Shown here piece by piece: positions 47,320-58,164 of a DNA stretch of 64,000 nt (position 1 is the stretch's first letter; each line of letters begins with the position of its first letter). The translations under genes and the position numbers were made by a program. This DNA comes from Paecilomyces variotii (Eukaryota), in the NCBI GenBank assembly GCA_004022145.1, contig RCNU01000007.1; one strand, written 5' to 3'. The notes under the pieces are model-generated. The model worked only from the letters and a program-made list of their open reading frames with translations, was not told the DNA's origin and made no database searches.

Positions 47320-50300
47320 ATGGCTCTGACTTCGGTGAGGGAAAATCCAACCTATAACCACAAAATTACAGGAACATGTTTCACTGACTCCGACTACCTC
47401 GAAATATATAGTGGAAAACGTTTAATTTCTTCGAAGTCTCGCAGGTGAAGCTGCCCGAGGAGAGCTCCTCGGTCTTCGACGTACGTATCGCCATCTCTCC
47501 CTCCCCCTCTCACCTGTTTCTATACGCGGGCTTTGTTTTTTCCCCCTTGGCTAATGCATAGTGTGGTGGTTGCGATAGAATGATGTTTCTTCCATATGTA
47601 CCGGCTCAGCGAACCTGTTCCTAGGCACCACTAATGGTATCGTCCATATCGTCTCGTCGGCGTTCAAGCTAGTGCGATCATTCAAGGCGCATGATGCGGG
47701 TTCTATTACGCATATGAAACAGGTCGAAGGGACGTCGTTATTGGTGACTATAGCGGAGGATCTGCTGAATGAGCCCGTGTTGAAGGTGTGGGCGCTGGAT
47801 AAGTCGGAGAAGAAGACTGGGGCGCCGCGGTGTCTTTCGTCGCTGTCTGTGCAGAATCAGAGGAGGCAGTTTCCGGTATGTGATGGGATCGATCGTTTTT
47901 GCGGGTGTCTGAGCTAATTGGTATTGGTAAAAGGTTTCGGCGTTTACTGCCTTACCCGACTTATCTCAGCTGGCGGTTGGTTTCGCGAATGGAGCGGTGA
48001 CGGTTATTCGAGGGGATCTGATCAATGATCGCGGGGCTAGACAAAGGATAGTTTTCGAGTCAGAGGAGCCGATTACTGGATTGGAGGTGCAGGTTGGAGG
48101 GATCACGAATCTTTACATTGCGACGACGAGTCGTATTCTCACGCTTGTGATCGCGGGTAGAGGCCAGGGACAGCCTGCGCGGGTGCTCGAAGATGCAGGT
48201 TGTGGACTGGGTTGCATGACGCTGGACAAGCAGACTGGAGATGTCCTCATTGCACGAGAGGATGCCATATACACTTATGATGCTCGGGGAAGGGGCCCAA
48301 GTTATGCTTTCGAGAGTCCAAAAACCTCAATCGACACGTTCAGTGATTATGTGGTCCTGGTCTGTCCGCCGAAGACGACAAAGTCGGATCCTTTGCGGAG
48401 GCTCGGTCAGATGGATGACCTTTTGAGTACATCGACGTTCACGCTGCTGGATACTGATCTTAAGTTCATTGCTCATACGGAATCGCTGGCGTCGAGGCCG
48501 AAGAGCATTTTCATGGAATGGGGGGATCTTTTCCTTCTCACGACGGACGGAAAGGTGAGCATCCGGGACCGAACGTGCGTTAAGCAAGCTGTCTAATGAT
48601 AATTTAGGTCTACCGCTACCATGAAAAGTCTCTACAGCAGAAGCTAGAGATTCTCTATCAGCGCAACCTTTACATTCTGGCAATCAACCTAGCGCAGAAG
48701 GCTGGTGTTGACGTTTACCAGCAGAACGTCATCTTCCGGAAATATGGTGATTACCTTTACCAGAAAGGGGACTACGATACGGCAATGCAGCAATATCTCA
48801 GGGCGATCGATAACACGGAACCTTCTCAAGTCATTAGAAAGGTTGGTTCAGTTTATTTATTTCGTCAAATCGTGTGAGGTATATTCAGTGGCTGATAAAG
48901 ACGCAGTTCCTGGATACGCAGCGGATACATAACTTGATCGAGTATTTGGAGGAGCTTCACGAGCATGATCGTGCGACGGCAGATCATACGACGCTGCTCC
49001 TGAATTGTTATGCCAAGCTAAAGGACACAGGCAAGCTGGACTCCTTTATAAAAGCTCCTGGCGAGCTTAAGTTCGATCTCGAGACAGCCATAGCTATGTG
49101 TCGACAAGGCGGGTATTTCGAGCAGGCAGCGTATTTGGCTACGAAGCACGGAGAGAATGAGATGGTCGTCGACATTCTCATTGAAGACTCGAAGAAGTAT
49201 GCGGAAGCAGTTGAATTCATCTGGCGACTGGAGCCCGAGGAGGTGCGTATTACCGCGGATGTTCATCTTATCTTTAGAAGCTCAAACCTGACTTGTTCTA
49301 GGCCTATCCTAATCTCATTAAATACGCGCGGGTGCTGCTATCGCACTGCCCGCAAGAGACGACGCAGTTGTTCATAGACTACTACACGGGCAAATACCGA
49401 CCGAAGAAGGAGATTGAGGCTCCCGCAAAACCAGAGGAGCAACCTGGCAGCGCAGTTTCAAACCTGGCCGCTTTAATACCTCTCCCTTACATGAGCGTCG
49501 GTGGTGGTCACAAGTCTCGACCCAGCGAACCTGAGGTTTCCACAGAAGATAAGACGGCTGAGACGCCAGTTGAATACGACATTCCCAAGCCTAGGACCGC
49601 GTTTTCCTCGTTTGTGGACCACCCACAGGAGTTTATCAGATTCCTGGAAGCGCTTATCCAGCAAGAAGACCTGAAGAAAGAGGATAAAATCGATCTATAC
49701 ACCACTCTTTTTGAAATGTATCTTGACACGGCGAACGGAAAGAAGGATAATACGGAGAAACAGGAATGGCAGGACAGAGCCAAGAAGTTGATTGAGGGCA
49801 AAGACGTAAGGATAATGAAAACCATCACAGGGTGCATGGCTAATCCCGTCGACAGATACCTATCTCAACCTCAAACGTCCTGCTTCTTTCGGATTTGGCC
49901 AACTTCCGAGAGGGCACAACTCTGGTGCGCGAGCAAGAGGGACTTCGAGCGGATATCTTTCGGTCCTACACCGCTGCGAAGGATACGCAAGGCGTGATAA
50001 GAGCTTTGAGGAAGTATGGCCCCCAGGAGCCACAGTTATATATCGATGCGTTGGCGTACTTTGCCTCTAGCCCGAAGATACTGGAAGAAGCAGGCGACGA
50101 ACTAGATGTCGTTCTCAGAAAGATCGACGAGGATGGCCTCATGGCGCCACTCCAGGTCATTCAGTCTCTCAGCAATAACGCTGTCGTCACAATGGGTATG
50201 GTAAAGAGGTATCTTAGCAGCAATATTGAGCGGGAGCGGAAGGAGATCACAACGGTGAGTTTGACACCTTCATCAACCACCTTTTTCTGTCTTTTAACAC

Positions 50301-50690
50301 TGACTCTCGATGTAGAATCGCCGCCTCATATCCAGCTACAATGCTGAAACCGAGAGCCGAAAGAAGGAGATCGAGGAGCTGGGCAACAAGCCCGTCATCT
50401 TCCAATCCCGTCGCTGCATGTATTGTCGTGACCCACTAGACCTCCCAACCGTCCACTTCCTCTGCAAGCACTCATTCCACCAGCGATGTCTCGACAAACC
50501 CGACGAGAATCCAGAATGTCCAGTGTGCGCGCCACAAAATGCCACGATCAAGGAGATCCGCAAGAGACAAGTAGACTGGGCAGACCAGCACGATCTTTTC
50601 GCTGGGGAACTTCAGCGCAGTCGAGATCGGTTCGGTCTCATCAGCGAGTTCTTTGGAAGAGGAGTCATGCGACCGCAGAGTACGGAGTGA
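47320..50690 (+). CDS. VPS11: Vacuolar protein sorting protein Vps11/Pep5 (HOPS/CORVET core)
   Basis: Nine exons: 47320-47334, 47412-47480, 47579-47875, 47934-48554, 48608-48841, 48907-49242, 49302-49805, 49856-50254, 50316-50690. Start MALTSWKTFNFF, HTTLLLNCYAKLKD and C-terminal RING (CMYC..LDLPTVHFLCKHSFHQRC..CPVC). Confidence 0.93.
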
Positions 50691-51054
50691 AATGAAGTTA
50701 AAGAGGGGAAGAAGATTTCTGTTTAATGCTGTGTTGAACGTCTTGATACCTCCTTGTAGACTATATATGCATATTAGCAATATATCTATGATCTGTTCAC
50801 AATGCACTATTGAAATGCCAAATCAAAGAATCGAAATGACTCATTCAAGCTCAATATACCCTACGGTCGCGTGGAGGAGTCCCCTGTATTCTCATCAGTG
50901 ACGCGACGCGCGCAGAATAACTTCACCCAGTCAGTACCAGCACCACCAGAAAAAAGCCCCTCATATAACCCAGACCCTCCAAAAAACTCCTCACATAAAT
51001 ACCCCCAGAAAAAAAGAATTACAAAAATCCTCCTAGAGTTACGCAGCAAAAAAT

Positions 51055-51064
51055 AAAAAAAAAA
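51055..51064 (-). terminator. Pol III oligo(dT) terminator of the putative ncRNA
   Basis: T10 run on the minus strand 5 nt after the 3' arm of the closing stem, followed by a further T6. Confidence 0.7.
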
Positions 51065-51069
51065 GAAAG

Positions 51070-51210
51070 TGACCTGATACCGCGGGTTTACCTGGATGAC
51101 CCCCTCCATCATCAACCCGATAAACCGCCCAGGCCGGGACTCGAACCTCGGCGCTCATGTATGGCGTATGTCCACAGGACCGCTGCGCTATGAAACCCGG
51201 GTCTCGGTCA
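51070..51210 (-). ncRNA. Putative RNA polymerase III-transcribed structured ncRNA (~140 nt, tRNA-like but not a tRNA)
   Basis: Minus strand: TATAAT (51236-51231), A box TAGCGCAGCGG (51190-51180), B box GGTTCGAGTCC (51147-51137), T10 terminator. 5' TGACCGAGACCCGGGTTT pairs with 3' AAACCCGCGGTATCAGGTCA. Confidence 0.75.
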
Positions 51211-51490
51211 AAGGGACCTTCTTACAGTGAATTATATGCGTTGTGTTGTTGTTGTGCTGGAGTAGAGGGCGGTAAGTATGGGGTGGATGTTATTTTGTAT
51301 GTAGATCTGGGGGCGGATCTTATCTTATCAGTCACGTGATGGCGCGTTGTGCGGCGTTTGGGCTTGGCGCGTGGACGGAACGCGCGCGGAAGAGTAAGTT
51401 GGGTTGGGGATTTGTTCTAGACCCCCTCCTCCTACCTAATTAGAAAGTGGATAGCTGTATCGAGAAGAGAGGTGGGATTCTATCATCGAT

Positions 51491-53752
51491 ATGCATCCAG
51501 GAAGGGTGATTCAGGATTCGGATGATGAAGATGATGCTCTGTCTGATGTCGCGACGTCGATTGATCCGTTACAGGAGCAGGAGCAGGAGCAGCATGATGA
51601 TGACTATGGCAATGCCGAGGGTCAGGCGGAGGAGCATGAAGAGCGACATTCCGAGAAAGAGGTGGAATATACTACAGAGCGTGCTATTACTGGATCGCAG
51701 CTCGGTGTCAATTTTGATGATTTTCTACAATCTCAGCCTCAGACGACGACTGGTCTTTCATCTTCCCAGCAGAGGAGGGAGGAAAGATGGATTCCGACAG
51801 AGAGTGGTAATGAGTCTATTGGTGAGTGTATGCGTGTGTTGTTTTCAGTGGTGGGATTTTCATCAGCTAGGGATTTTACTGAGATGTTTCCTGTCTGTCT
51901 AGGTGCTACGATGAGCGAAATCGGTCGCGCTCAGAGGTTGCTAGTTGATGATGTGACGCCTCTCAATTATCCACTGCTTCCCTCGATGGACCAGTCGGCA
52001 GATCCACTGCTGTGTACATATCAGTCTTCTGATGGAGCTGGCGGGGTGAAACGTCCACAGTCTGTGGTTGATGCCGTGAGTGGAGAAGATCAGGATACGG
52101 GATACTGGTCAGAGCAACAAGCGAAGAGATGCAAGATCTCGGAACACGGAAATGGCGAAGATGAGGTCGTGGAGTTGCCTCAAAAGGGCAATGAACATCA
52201 GCTGCAGGACCTTCTGCAGCAATCAGCAGCTATGGATGAGCAGTCCCACAGCCACCCTGGGCCGGACGATCCAGAGAAGAAGACCAGCACAAACGACAAC
52301 GAGGCGTCTGTTACGGCCTCATACAACTACTTCGACTCGTCACTGAAGCTGAGAGAGTATACGGAAGTTAGCACTGTGCCTATTGCTAGCCCAGGAGAGG
52401 AACGCGATGAGCTAGTGGAGACCATTCGTCGAACGCCTGGCCGATCGAAGTCGATGCAGATGCCCCCCGTGGACTCGCCTCACGACACTGAACCCTTTTC
52501 CTCATTGATATCTCCGCATGTAAAGCGGGCAAAAAGTGACATGCCAGTGAAAGGTGTATCCCCGAAAGCGTCGATAGACACGCCAGACGAACTGTCTCTC
52601 CCCGTTACGGTGGAAGCCCCGTTGGCTCAAAAGAAGAAACGAGGAAGGAAGAAGAAGCAGCTGGCAGAGGATGGCACTGATGGGGAGCCAGACGAGCTTA
52701 ACGCCGATGCCACACATGGAATCCCTGACGAACCGAAGAAACGCGGACGCGGCAGGCCTAGAAAAATACAAGTCGAAGGCGTGCAATCACCTAAACCCCA
52801 ATTCGACGAAGATCTTGTCATGGCTGTTGCACAAGAGACCATTGCAGACCCGGATCAACCTAACAAGTTCGAGGAAGACTCTAGGTTCGTTATGCACGAT
52901 GAAAAACCAGACTATGACACCTTTGATCCTGCAAAAGCAGACGTAGGACTGCCACAAGAACAATATATACCTCGACCAAGTCGTTCACGAGCTCAACCAA
53001 TTGAAAATTATGAATCTCCCGATTCGATATCGGGACTATCCATAGAGAAGACCAAGAAGAGGAAGATCAAGCGGGGCAAAACCACTTCGATCATGATCAA
53101 GAAATCCTACGAGTCAGACGTCGAAGACGACGTGATATGGATTGACGAGAAGCCCGCGAAGGAGCCCTTCAAAGCCAAGGAAGAGACAGTAGCAGCAGTG
53201 GCACAAAGGCCTGATACCGTTGCTAACGACTTCGCGGAAGACAATCAGTGCGACATCAAGGACATAAAGCCCACTGACGCAATTGAAGATCCAACTAAAC
53301 AAGAAGCCATCGACCCAGCTCGTTCCGATGAACCTCCTGGTCCGAAGAAGCGCGGACGCAAGAGAAAGAAGACCGCAGAACTCGTGATCGCAGATCCTCC
53401 AGCTCAACAAGATATCTCTGAAGACGCAGAGACCGACGAACACACTACTCCTCAAAACATCCCAAACAATATTAACCCCCCAATCACCACCGAGGAGGGA
53501 CAATCAACCACTCACGAGGATACAATCCAAAAACCAGCCGAACCTCACGACATAACACCAGAACCCGAGATTCCAACTCCCAAAACGCCAACCGCAAAGC
53601 CCCACGATCCGACCGCCTGTACGTCTCAGAACACGAAGACGAAAGGCCCCGATAAACATAGCCCGATCACTTCCACAAGCAAGGTCCCATACCGCGTAGG
53701 TCTGAGTCGTAGAGCGCGAATCGCACCACTGTTGAAAATAGTGAGGAAGTGA
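51491..53752 (+). CDS. AT-hook-containing acidic nuclear protein
   Basis: KKKRGRKKK, KKRGRGRPRK (AT-hook) and KKRGRKRKK. C-terminal PYRVGLSRRARIAPLLKIVRK. Probable in-frame intron 51822-51902. Confidence 0.8.
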   Translation: MHPGRVIQDSDDEDDALSDVATSIDPLQEQEQEQHDDDYGNAEGQAEEHEERHSEKEVEYTTERAITGSQLGVNFDDFLQSQPQTTTGLSSSQQRREERWIPTESGNESIGECMRVLFSVVGFSSARDFTEMFPVCLGATMSEIGRAQRLLVDDVTPLNYPLLPSMDQSADPLLCTYQSSDGAGGVKRPQSVVDAVSGEDQDTGYWSEQQAKRCKISEHGNGEDEVVELPQKGNEHQLQDLLQQSAAMDEQSHSHPGPDDPEKKTSTNDNEASVTASYNYFDSSLKLREYTEVSTVPIASPGEERDELVETIRRTPGRSKSMQMPPVDSPHDTEPFSSLISPHVKRAKSDMPVKGVSPKASIDTPDELSLPVTVEAPLAQKKKRGRKKKQLAEDGTDGEPDELNADATHGIPDEPKKRGRGRPRKIQVEGVQSPKPQFDEDLVMAVAQETIADPDQPNKFEEDSRFVMHDEKPDYDTFDPAKADVGLPQEQYIPRPSRSRAQPIENYESPDSISGLSIEKTKKRKIKRGKTTSIMIKKSYESDVEDDVIWIDEKPAKEPFKAKEETVAAVAQRPDTVANDFAEDNQCDIKDIKPTDAIEDPTKQEAIDPARSDEPPGPKKRGRKRKKTAELVIADPPAQQDISEDAETDEHTTPQNIPNNINPPITTEEGQSTTHEDTIQKPAEPHDITPEPEIPTPKTPTAKPHDPTACTSQNTKTKGPDKHSPITSTSKVPYRVGLSRRARIAPLLKIVRK

Positions 53753-55394: not shown

Positions 55395-58164
55395 TGTGAA
55401 GGACTTCTAGTTCGATAAAGAGAGAGACCGTTGAAATATGGGACAGAAGCATATGTTAGTCGATAATGAGAGTTTGATACAACGAGCGTGGTGCGAGAAA
55501 TATTGAAGCGCGACTCAGATTCATACAGTTGACCATCCCTGGAGCTACTGTTGGCCGTAATTTATACAACAACGGGCTGGCTCCGTTAGGAAAGGGCTAT
55601 CCTTGGGAAGGAACTTTCAGACGCCAAACAACATGCCCTTCGATTCAAGTAACTGCCAGTTCATCGCTACATGGCACCTAAGATGGATCTGTACCCAGAT
55701 TGATAAGAATGATGAAGTATTACCAGACAGGTTTTCTCATTGTTTGCAAGATCGATCTATAGTATTCAAACCCAATATGAACGTGCTTGCGACCATGCAT
55801 ACATCTTCTGCGAGGGAACTAATCTCTGGGTCAGAGCTCGATGTTGGTGGATCTGCTCTAGGTAGTTAGCCAAGAAACACACCGGGGGGGTTGAGAGACT
55901 TATAAAAGAGTTGGTGCCGCTCCCTGAAAGAGGGAACGGCCGTCTCTCTGCATCTTCCACATCGCTGCTACCGCGTTCCTACAAATGTCGTCGGCAAGTG
56001 GCATACTCGACGCATCCACTGGAACTCCCTGTCAAAGGGCAGTCATGACCTGCCGTCATAGAAGACTCCAGGCGAATTCCCTTAGGTGTCATTCCCATCA
56101 CGATATGTCAAGTAATCACCCTACACTCGGAATGACACAGACCGACGAAGGACAACATAACAAGCTTGCTAGAGCAGACAAACCGAAGTTTTGATCCTCC
56201 CGCGAGAGAGGTCCCACCCAAGCGGCCGTTGTGTCAGATCGATTCGCCGTCGACATAGCCGAGGAAGGTTGACAATGACAAAGAGCGCCCGGAGATAGTG
56301 TTATGACATTGAAGGAACCGCCAGTCGAGCTTCAAGCAGGCCATTTTACACCTTTCACATATGGAGCCCCATAGAATGGCGCCGATTTGCGACACTGATC
56401 GGACACAAGCAACGAAGCATGGGCAGTCTGTGAAAGTGGCTCGAGAAACATGAGCAAGGAGCGATCGAGCCCTCATTGCCTGTGATCGCGAAGGAGAGCG
56501 AACGGCCTCCATACCTCTCGGATTTCTCTTCCAAATCACGCCGAGAATTTTCTGTCTCCCAAACACTGTCTGACAGGTAGGAGTCATCCGTATCCTACCA
56601 TGTCAACCTCTCGAGCTCCAGACCCCGTAAGCTCCTTCCGGGCATCGGGACTGTTGGACTCTCTTGTTTGTAATACAGTACCTCTAGAGACTAGTTTTTG
56701 TTTCCTCTCCCGTAACATGGTCGTTTCCGGGAGGGCATCTTGAAGCGGACAAAAAACATCCTCAAAAACCGCTTCCTTCTCCCCGAAGGGAGGGGTGAAT
56801 GCGAGAATTCACAATCACCGATATCTGCGCCCGTCGATCAATCCACAAGCTGAACTTGCGAAGAGACGGTTAACACGGCTGATCTGGGCCTCTGATTGAG
56901 TTCAAGTCTGTGGCTGGTGCCGTGACTCGAAGTTGGCTGGCGAGCTTACATCACAGATGTCTCCATTAAGAGGACGAGGTGGAGCAGAGGGACGAAGAAC
57001 CCAGCTTCCTCGAGGTCGGAAACATGCACGGGATAGCAAACAACTACTAGCAGGCTGCTAGAGGCAGGAGGAGAATCACAAGACCGCCAGAGGACATTTC
57101 TGCCCACTGGTGCTTGCATCATCGACGAATAAAGTAGCGACTGGAACTGACAACAAGCCAAAAAAATCGACGGCATTCCATAGAGACTACCAGTCGACAA
57201 ACCGTACCTCAAGGTACGAACACAGAGACCTCGCTACAACTCCCAATTGTAGGCAGCTGGGTACTAACAATATGAAGAGTTGATTCCGGCGAGTGGATCT
57301 CCATCGCGCATTGAGGCCACGATTGTGTGTGGGCAACTATCCAAGAAGGTAAGTGTTTGTTGTGTTCAACGCTTCAATAGTCGCGAAGACGAAGCTGGCA
57401 TTTAGACCTTGGATCCTAGTGCCTTCGGTAGGAAGATATTGGAAAGCTCCCAAAGGCGACCTCCAAGTTTAGAGGTGCTCGGCATGCTTCACCTCTGCTC
57501 TCTCAGTCATCTCTCAACTTGCAAGCGCATACCAAACGCCCCTGATGATCACTTTCTAATGTCCAGCTACAGTAAACCGACGCGTGTCTCCTCAGAGACT
57601 TAGAACGCATGGTAGACCTTCTTCGAATGCCTATGGTAGGCTCTGGACGCCAAACACCTTTCGCCCCCAGCAAGGTCCCGGAGGATCTGGCGGTTGCTAG
57701 TCGGACATTTGACATATAGACCGCGAAGCTTGTGCCATTTCTGACAGCGGACAGATGAAGTAATTAGGGTTAGGTGTCCAGACTTTGCCCACCTCGAAAA
57801 ACCAAGCTCGCACCGTAGGCTTCAAGCGCAGTAGAGACAGGGCTTATTCGAGGTGTATTGATAGTATGACTACCAATGTAACAGAGACTGGAGATTTGGG
57901 AAGGTGAAACTGTATAAATCGCGCCATCAAGGCAAGAGAGTGGTGGAACAAGAGAGGTTGTTGACATGGTGGAAACGGCCGCGTCCGACCGTGTCTTCAA
58001 GAGAATGAGTCCAACTGAGAATTGCAACTGGCAGTGATCGATAAAGATTGAGAAGTTCGAGGCAAGAGGCAGTTCGGCCTCTGTCACGTACGTGTGCTGA
58101 GGGCTGTCGTGTGCTGAAGCTCATAAGAAGTCGAGGACAATAGCAGGAGACGAGAAGTAAATAT

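Follow-up and report, generated by a model that had tools for sequence, protein, structure and literature searches.

The sequence analysed here is a window of 64 kb, the whole stretch of DNA under study, taken from contig RCNU01000007.1 of Paecilomyces variotii (GCA_004022145.1). It carries a compact Pol III-type unit, read on the minus strand, that lies between VPS11 on one side and an AT-hook gene on the other, as a preliminary description of this DNA had correctly stated. VPS11, assigned by Pfam hits, is the upstream neighbour; it runs on the plus strand and ends with a stop codon at 50688-50690. The downstream neighbour, also on the plus strand, encodes the AT-hook motif KKRGRGRPRK and has its ATG at 51491, ~280 nt from the unit. 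The promoter and terminator elements are arranged as follows.

51231..51236, minus strand: TATAAT, a TATA-like box (from the sequence; within the block that close relatives keep unchanged)
51180..51190, minus strand: A box, TAGCGCAGCGG (from the sequence and a composite pattern test)
51137..51147, minus strand: B box, GGTTCGAGTCC (from the sequence and pattern tests)
51048..51069, minus strand: CUUUCUU 3' overhang, T10 terminator (51055-51064) and a further T6 (from the sequence)

The first T of TATAAT, read on the minus strand, is located 27 nt ahead of the probable start, G51209, and the A box sits at +20 counted from this base. The two boxes are separated by exactly 32 nt, the canonical spacing of tRNA genes. 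Downstream of the B box, ~65 nt lead to the T10 run, which comes right after the terminal helix of the RNA and is followed by more T runs. All four elements of the type-2 Pol III promoter layout given in the preliminary description, namely the A box, the B box, TATAAT and T10, were found as stated. The composite pattern TAGCNNAGNGG-N25-45-GGTTCGANTCC has a single match in the 64-kb window and none in 100 dinucleotide shuffles; the exact B box alone also matches once in the window, with at least one match in 20 of 100 shuffles. The A/B-box layout is not a product of chance.

The transcript and its fold

Public runs that hold the stretch number 20 of the 24 listed (12 studies; three recorded as RNA). 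The RNA runs X6 and X20, together with X7 and X10, were compared in detail, with parts of the stretch uncovered in X6, X20 and X10. The transcript is represented by a contig of the X20 metatranscriptome, which defines two features.

51063..51210, minus strand: the RNA as seen, 148 nt plus a non-templated A tail (X20 metatranscriptome contig)
51206..51210, minus strand: 5' end of the RNA, with the start within these five bases and G51209 as the likely purine start (deduced from the X20 contig)

The X20 contig is 191 nt long and matches the window over exactly 51063..51210, with 0 differences in 148 nt and no gaps. On the plus strand both of its ends are non-genomic, consisting of T18 before 51063 and CTTTCTT plus A18 after 51210; the 31-mers that span these junctions cannot derive from genomic DNA. 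In the simplest account, the contig is an oligo(dT)18-primed cDNA of an A-tailed, minus-sense RNA ending ...GGUCACUUUCUU, and the 3' end of this cDNA folded back on the terminal helix, copying the 7-nt overhang and the primer. The non-templated tails thus indicate the minus strand, and place the 5' end within 51206-51210 and the 3' end in the T run. The self-primed copy of the 3' overhang confines the start to five positions, all of them perfectly paired. At the other end, the contig stops two U into the T10 run, with a 7-nt overhang of CUUUCUU. A transcript of ~140-145 nt with an oligo(U) end had been predicted, and the contig ends at 51210 and 51063 agree with it, as read from one contig of depth 4.1 in one run, contigs being a weak witness of ends and strand. 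The A tail could signal TRAMP/exosome decay, which would make the RNA an unstable by-product, or it may have been added in library preparation. Surveillance targets of the TRAMP type carry A tails.

An origin other than Pol III would make the RNA a Pol II transcript, such as a long 5' UTR of the AT-hook gene, a read-through from VPS11 or an antisense RNA, or would reduce it to DNA carried over into RNA libraries. RNA libraries can contain DNA, and a contig of the X6 RNA library spans both flanks and crosses the whole intergenic region (50989-51461); this contig may be either DNA or a longer transcript. However, the non-genomic T18 and A18 of the X20 contig coincide precisely with the predicted start and terminator, and the unit has the corresponding promoter and terminator layout, both of which render an origin outside Pol III decidedly improbable. 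A splice at the loose end of the X6 contig, 51461, was examined separately and rejected, as only a 3-nt indel lies near the contig end.

The elements of the fold are listed below.

51193..51210, minus strand: 5' strand of the terminal helix, RNA nt 1-18 (fold and duplex test)
51070..51089, minus strand: 3' strand of the terminal helix, RNA nt 122-141 (fold and duplex test)
51170..51180, minus strand: small hairpin GUCC-UGU-GGAC in the former D/anticodon region (from the sequence only)
51133..51152, minus strand: T-arm-like hairpin with a canonical T loop and the B box inside (from the sequence and pattern tests)
51085..51126, minus strand: added 3' domain, hairpin GGUUUAUCGGGUUGA / UCAUCCAGGUAAACC (repeat pairing and fold)

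The two ends of the RNA assemble into a terminal helix of 17 pairs, whose probabilities are 0.47-0.99; a single mismatch and two bulges interrupt it. The end pairings proposed earlier are real, namely UGACC/GGUCA (the UGACC beginning at 51210), GAGACC/GGUAUC (with one mismatch) and CGGGUUU/AAACCCG. The end-to-end duplex has an energy of -22.5 kcal/mol, which was equalled in 20 of 20000 random 148-nt windows; among GC-matched windows, 15 of 16792 possess an end-to-end duplex as strong as that of the unit. The minimum free energy of the whole molecule is no better than that of shuffled sequences (z = -0.25; 79 of 200 shuffles fold equally well).

Inside the terminal helix, the T-arm-like hairpin is not predicted thermodynamically (probability 0.001), and its stem requires a bulged A. 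The small hairpin GUCC-UGU-GGAC is absent from the computed minimum-energy fold and present only in a hand-specified structure, which has an energy of -40.9 kcal/mol compared to -52.6 kcal/mol for the minimum-energy fold. The hairpin of the 3' domain, with two 15-nt arms (51085-51099 and 51112-51126) that are 80% complementary, would form at the expense of the inner third of the terminal helix. Because the whole-molecule energy is ordinary and the T arm lacks thermodynamic support, the inner arms are unproven. Of the structure drawn in the preliminary description, the long imperfect end stem therefore stands, whereas the three arms enclosed by it are as yet unproven.

Relation to tRNA genes, known RNA families and other fungi

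The earlier statement that the unit is not a tRNA is borne out by several searches. ARAGORN reported no tRNA or tmRNA gene over the window, and no tRNA at the unit when introns were allowed or when run at -ps80; tmRNA and permuted tRNA, of which ARAGORN found none, were rejected as candidates. Only at -ps70 (70% of the threshold) did it return a poor cloverleaf, running 51202->51126, and RF00005 had no match at E<=10. Inspection of the 32-nt interval between the A and B boxes revealed no 5-bp anticodon stem; two registers of this interval place CAU or GCC at the anticodon position, both with poor stems. In a tRNA, the 7-bp acceptor stem directly adjoins both U8 and the T stem, whereas here 2 nt lie between the terminal helix and U8, and ~43 nt between this helix and the T stem.

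Comparison of the whole window against Rfam 15 at gathering thresholds gave only a Telomerase_Asco segment, 5.5 kb from the unit. At E<=10, the interval 50900-51400 yielded three chance-level matches and no match to the tRNA, vault (RF00006), Y (RF00019), VA, SRP, U6, 5S or Afu_ families, so that the suggestion of an RNA outside the Rfam families, those of the Afu_ type included, holds. The term vault-like that had been applied to it is accordingly kept for the architecture only, the vault, Y, VA and SRP models having no match. A snoRNA was also considered and rejected: UGAUGA is present, but there is neither a CUGA D box nor an ACA 3 nt from the end.

Apparent traces of a parental tRNA gene lie next to the T-arm-like hairpin, where one further feature was recognized.

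51128..51133, minus strand: CCUGGG, immediately 3' of the T stem (from the sequence and the ARAGORN -ps70 cloverleaf)

This motif, as CCUGGG(C), is able to pair with (A)CCCGGG at 51196-51202. Judging from these letters, CCCGGG/CCUGGG is likely a remnant of the acceptor stem of the parent tRNA; it is the only such helix flush with the T stem, and the fold that contains it is ~11 kcal/mol worse than the terminal-helix fold. Today, 5 nt (UUUCA) intervene between CCCGGG and the A box, the T arm is followed by ~45 added nt before the 3' helix strand begins, and no anticodon arm can be recognised. The 3' helix strand itself repeats the 5' leader and the acceptor strand as an imperfect inverted copy. 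The unit thus combines an apparent tRNA ancestry with retained A and B boxes, as do relics of the ZOD1/ETC9 type.

The last exon of VPS11 (P0001, comprising RING and VPS11_C) was used as a query and retrieved 80 fungal metagenome loci, with maxima among the 80 of 81% amino-acid and 75% nucleotide identity. Downstream sequence of at least 1000 nt is available in 63 of the 80 loci, and 14 of the 80 also carry a homologue of the downstream AT-hook gene. The unit was found in none of the 80, including none of the 14 with the same gene order. A blastn search of these loci returned only chance matches of 12-21 nt at E<=10, and no A/B-box pair was found; B-box-like words with at most one mismatch occur 19 times versus ~24 expected, with no exact copy. 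The covariance model R1, which was built from a single sequence and a hand-drawn structure, gave 193.6 bits on the window and at most 10.3 bits (E = 5.2) elsewhere in a search of the loci. Syntenic conservation across the Eurotiales, to which the preliminary description had looked, was not seen in these 80 fungal VPS11 loci, and conservation extends to near-identical relatives only. The absence from the 80 loci implies that the unit is restricted to a narrow clade, or that it has moved in the other fungi. In the locus L003, which has the same gene order and a VPS11 of 78% amino-acid identity, 651 nt separate the VPS11 end from residue 83 of the next gene; the same interval in the window measures 1014 nt and is ~360 nt longer. 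The distant locus L061 carries one intron-bearing tRNA-Ala (ARAGORN), which is unrelated to the unit.

The unit was described earlier as standing alone, and the copy search agrees within the 64-kb window: no second copy is present, and only the T run matches elsewhere. A DNA contig of X7 runs through the unit at a depth of 7.24, compared to 6.0-9.0 alongside, and this neighbour-like depth argues against a multi-copy repeat. Pattern scans of a prokaryote collection and a viral collection gave 0 matches in each. These data bear on a mobile origin of the unit, which would then be one copy of a tRNA-derived SINE or of a MITE-like element, in the latter case with terminal inverted repeats that only look like a helix. 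Its ends do form an imperfect inverted repeat of 18-20 nt, and a 9/10 direct repeat, AGGTC(C/A)CTTT at 51219-51210 and 51075-51066, is a possible target-site duplication that overlaps the helix; the extra ~360 nt relative to L003 would also fit an insertion. Yet no second copy was seen in the 64 kb and the X7 depth is that of a single copy, a Pol III terminator stands at the 3' end in place of an A-rich or LINE-like tail, and the TATA box, although correctly spaced, lies outside the inverted repeat. With the pattern also missing from the prokaryote and viral collections, a mobile element is very improbable, the least probable of all the readings weighed here.

Apparent constraint in close relatives

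The unit falls within a block that is shared by three relatives, X6, X7 and X10, which are roughly 95% identical.

51048..51243, no strand: block without a listed indel and with an inferred 0-2 substitutions in X6, X7 and X10 (contigs, 31-mer shares and simulation)

Aligned to the window over 50754-51455, the X7 contig shows 36 substitutions and 12 indel events; its 23 gap letters all fall outside 51048-51243, the nearest being located at 51047 and 51244, directly beside the block. The contig of X6 has 21 substitutions in 473 nt and that of X10 has 5 in 273 nt. In the interval 51040-51250, the three relatives keep 15-16 of the 17 sampled 31-mers. The missing 31-mers are accounted for by the two flank indels (51047 and 51244) in X6 and X7, and by the 51244 indel together with the contig start at 51057 in X10. 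Substitutions inside the unit were deduced from these 31-mer shares rather than read position by position; on simulation, 0 internal substitutions is the most likely number and at least 3 has a probability of ~1.4% or less. If substitutions were spread evenly, the probability of at most two inside would be 8e-4 for X7, with its 36 substitutions, and 1.6e-3 for X6, with its 21. In X20, the RNA contig without a difference in 148 nt compares to 24 differences in 951 nt of the other contigs of this run, and the neighbouring stretches of VPS11 and of the downstream gene in X7 differ by ~1.7-3.6%. The unit, including its TATA box, 3' extension and terminator, appears to be under tighter constraint than the sequence beside it.

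A neutral, decaying tRNA pseudogene, still transcribed and functionless as both DNA and RNA, would be absent from other fungi, as the unit is from all 80 VPS11 loci, and would be consistent with the missing RNA family match and the ordinary global fold energy. A precedent is provided by AfuSINE2 of Aspergillus fumigatus, a group of tRNA-related, intergenic sequences of 140-493 bp in single or low copy, of which, in the available part of the source, 5 of 8 are transcribed and 0 of 8 fold as a cloverleaf (Kanhayuwa & Coutts 2016, PMC5063351). AfuSINE2 sequences are defined there by target-site duplications and have degenerate A and B boxes, whereas those of the Paecilomyces unit are perfect and its T10 terminator is clean; compared by eye, the eight AfuSINE2 sequences printed in that part show no resemblance to the unit. 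In contrast to what neutral decay would leave, divergence of the unit in X6, X7, X10 and X20 is much lower than that of its flanks or of the adjacent coding sequence, and its boxes, TATA box and terminator are all intact though the tRNA body is unrecognisable. Neutral persistence is thus improbable.

The constraint could also be exerted on the DNA. The unit would then be a tRNA relic similar to ZOD1/ETC9 of budding yeast: TFIIIC, TFIIIB and Pol III bound there would form a boundary or roadblock that separates VPS11 from the AT-hook gene promoter, and the RNA would be a by-product that is adenylated and broken down. Decay has touched the RNA-level tRNA features (mismatches in the T stem and no anticodon arm) but left the A and B boxes perfect, the unit lies between two tandem plus-strand genes, and the non-templated A tail of the RNA contig is of the kind carried by TRAMP targets. 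Pol III complexes do influence nearby Pol II transcription, according to the available part of PMC4228148. However, the ~196 nt of the unchanged block take in the 3' extension of ~65 nt as well as the outer part of the terminal helix, neither of which TFIIIC is known to need, and a site that only binds proteins would not account for the rare, strong end-to-end helix. A role confined to the DNA is therefore rather unlikely.

A proposed selected RNA and its closest known counterparts

We give about even credence to the reading that the unit is a single-copy, clade-restricted, tRNA-gene-derived type-2 Pol III-type gene under selection, whose selected product is the RNA; it is probably a young, working non-coding RNA. 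From what is generally known of Pol III, TFIIIC would bind the intact A and B boxes at their 32-nt spacing and TFIIIB would sit on TATAAT, and the polymerase would start at about G51209 and stop in T10, the RNA ends themselves having been seen. The ~148-nt RNA would no longer fold as a tRNA; its ends would pair into the 17-bp helix with a U-rich 3' overhang, and this helix would close a core that retains the letters of the D loop and T loop of the tRNA elbow. The U tract would be trimmed to UU and an A tail added, the RNA otherwise being full length from start to terminator. As it is seen at full length, RNase P and RNase Z apparently do not process it, presumably because a gap separates the acceptor-like helix from the T arm. 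In our view, the RNA itself is the functional product, since the whole unit, and not merely the two boxes, is unchanged in the relatives. Its role would most likely be that of a small RNP or of a ligand for export or dsRNA-binding proteins, with a terminal helix and a 3' overhang like those of VA RNA, vault RNA and nc886, or else that of a small-RNA precursor, for which the preliminary description had offered Neurospora milRNAs as a putative analogy. A more specific version is offered tentatively and appears somewhat less likely than not to be right in full: a new non-coding RNA gene would have arisen from a tRNA gene in one narrow clade, would already be under strong purifying selection along its whole length, and would be a fungal counterpart of VA, vault and nc886 RNAs, with its terminal helix and 3' overhang around a tRNA-elbow core, acting as an RNP or a decoy for tRNA- or dsRNA-binding factors.

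Three loci of Saccharomyces cerevisiae, ZOD1, iYGR033c/ETC9 and RNA170, descend from tRNA genes with retention of the A and B boxes, are taxon-restricted, and are bound or weakly transcribed by Pol III, as stated in the available part of PMC5356446. Unlike these, the Paecilomyces unit adds a TATA box, a 3' domain of ~65 nt and a 17-bp end helix. Its constraint appears to span the whole length as opposed to the boxes alone, with Pol III occupancy being putative here.

A minihelix has a terminal stem of more than 14 bp. Exportin-5 corresponds to Msn5 in fungi, and vault and Y RNAs are bound by MVP/TEP1 or Ro60. The unit has an internal type-2 promoter and a terminal stem in which the 5' end is paired and a short 3' end stays single-stranded, corresponding to the minihelix type as defined in the available part of PMC7589676. 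That part also describes VA RNA I as a Pol III transcript of ~150-160 nt with internal A and B boxes, thought to be derived from a tRNA gene, in which the terminal stem and the single-stranded 3' end serve Exportin-5 export and Dicer entry (PMC7589676). The unit shares the architecture of terminal helix and 3' overhang with VA RNA I, metazoan vault RNA and nc886, with no match to them in sequence or covariance model. It also differs from VA RNA I in its core, which would be a three-way junction compared to an apical stem and a central domain, and in being cellular, whereas VA RNA I is viral.

The rodent BC1 RNA is a lineage-specific Pol III RNA of ~150 nt, encoded by a single gene that came from a tRNA gene. 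Its tRNA-like part folds as a stem and not as a cloverleaf, and it has an A-rich central region and a neuronal role. The unit resembles BC1 in being lineage-restricted, apparently tRNA-gene-derived and ~150 nt long; the A-rich region and the neuronal role set BC1 apart.

The terms 'Pol III', 'A-box', 'B-box' and 'tRNA-like' do not occur in Joechl et al. 2008 (PMC2377427). No description of the RNA was found in the literature searched, whose supplements, such as the AfuSINE figures and the ncRNA tables, could hold related loci. The list of fungal Pol III genes is short and thought to be nearly closed, comprising tRNAs, 5S, U6, SRP RNA and RNase P RNA, to which yeast adds snR52, RNA170 and a few relics. 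If the unit is only a relic, it would still indicate where Pol III/TFIIIC sits in a neighbouring gene's promoter region. If it is a gene as we propose, it would be a clade-specific addition to the Pol III genes whose promoter elements are intact, whose transcript is defined and which bears signs of selection. It would then provide a testable example of a tRNA gene rebuilt into a different RNA, in which the birth of a new Pol III gene is tractable, at a locus suited to separating the RNA-level from the DNA-level roles of Pol III units.

Fold and ends of the predicted Pol III RNA

The RNA of the minus-strand, tRNA-derived candidate Pol III element is predicted to be closed by a 17-pair terminal helix that joins its two ends. 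An alternative 15-nt hairpin was also found, in which positions 51085-51099 and 51112-51126 are 80% complementary. The computed folding energies place the terminal-helix fold ~11 kcal/mol ahead of this alternative. Because the hairpin and the inner part of the terminal helix use the same AAACC letters, the modeled RNA could switch between the two folds.

The ends of the element also carry a direct repeat, AGGTC(C/A)CTTT, whose two minus-strand copies (51219-51210 and 51075-51066) are identical at 9 of 10 positions. One copy sits immediately upstream of the RNA start and the other at the 3' end of the terminal helix. This repeat could represent a target-site-like duplication, or a relic of the origin of the inverted 3' strand.

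The flanking genes and the interval between them

The element lies between VPS11 and an AT-hook gene, with the following features:

50254-50314, plus strand: GT..AG intron of 61 nt late in VPS11, confirmed by spliced contigs from two public RNA runs (X6 and X20)
50688-50690, plus strand: VPS11 stop codon
51491-53752, plus strand: downstream gene with the AT-hook-like motif KKRGRGRPRK

The product of the downstream gene is a low-complexity, acidic/basic protein, for which a Pfam search returned no match; its conservation across many fungal loci is confined to the last ~36 residues (730-765 of the frame). A contig from the X6 RNA library (50989-51461, ~95% identical) runs across all of the intergenic DNA that separates VPS11 from the AT-hook gene, and covers the element as well. 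Carried-over DNA could account for this contig, as could a long transcript that overlaps the Pol III unit.

A tRNA gene at a distant fungal locus and a probable telomerase RNA gene

Among 80 fungal VPS11 loci from metagenomes, the sole tRNA is an intron-containing tRNA-Ala(CGC) gene (locus L061, 3151-3263, minus strand), ~1.4 kb downstream of VPS11. This locus belongs to a distant fungus (VPS11 identity of 56%), and the proximity is probably a coincidence.

An Rfam search of the window revealed a minus-strand match to the Ascomycota telomerase RNA model at 56689-56772 (47.5 bits), spanning model positions 1285-1381 of 1858; the core segment alone is recognized. A telomerase RNA gene probably resides ~5.5 kb from the Pol III element.
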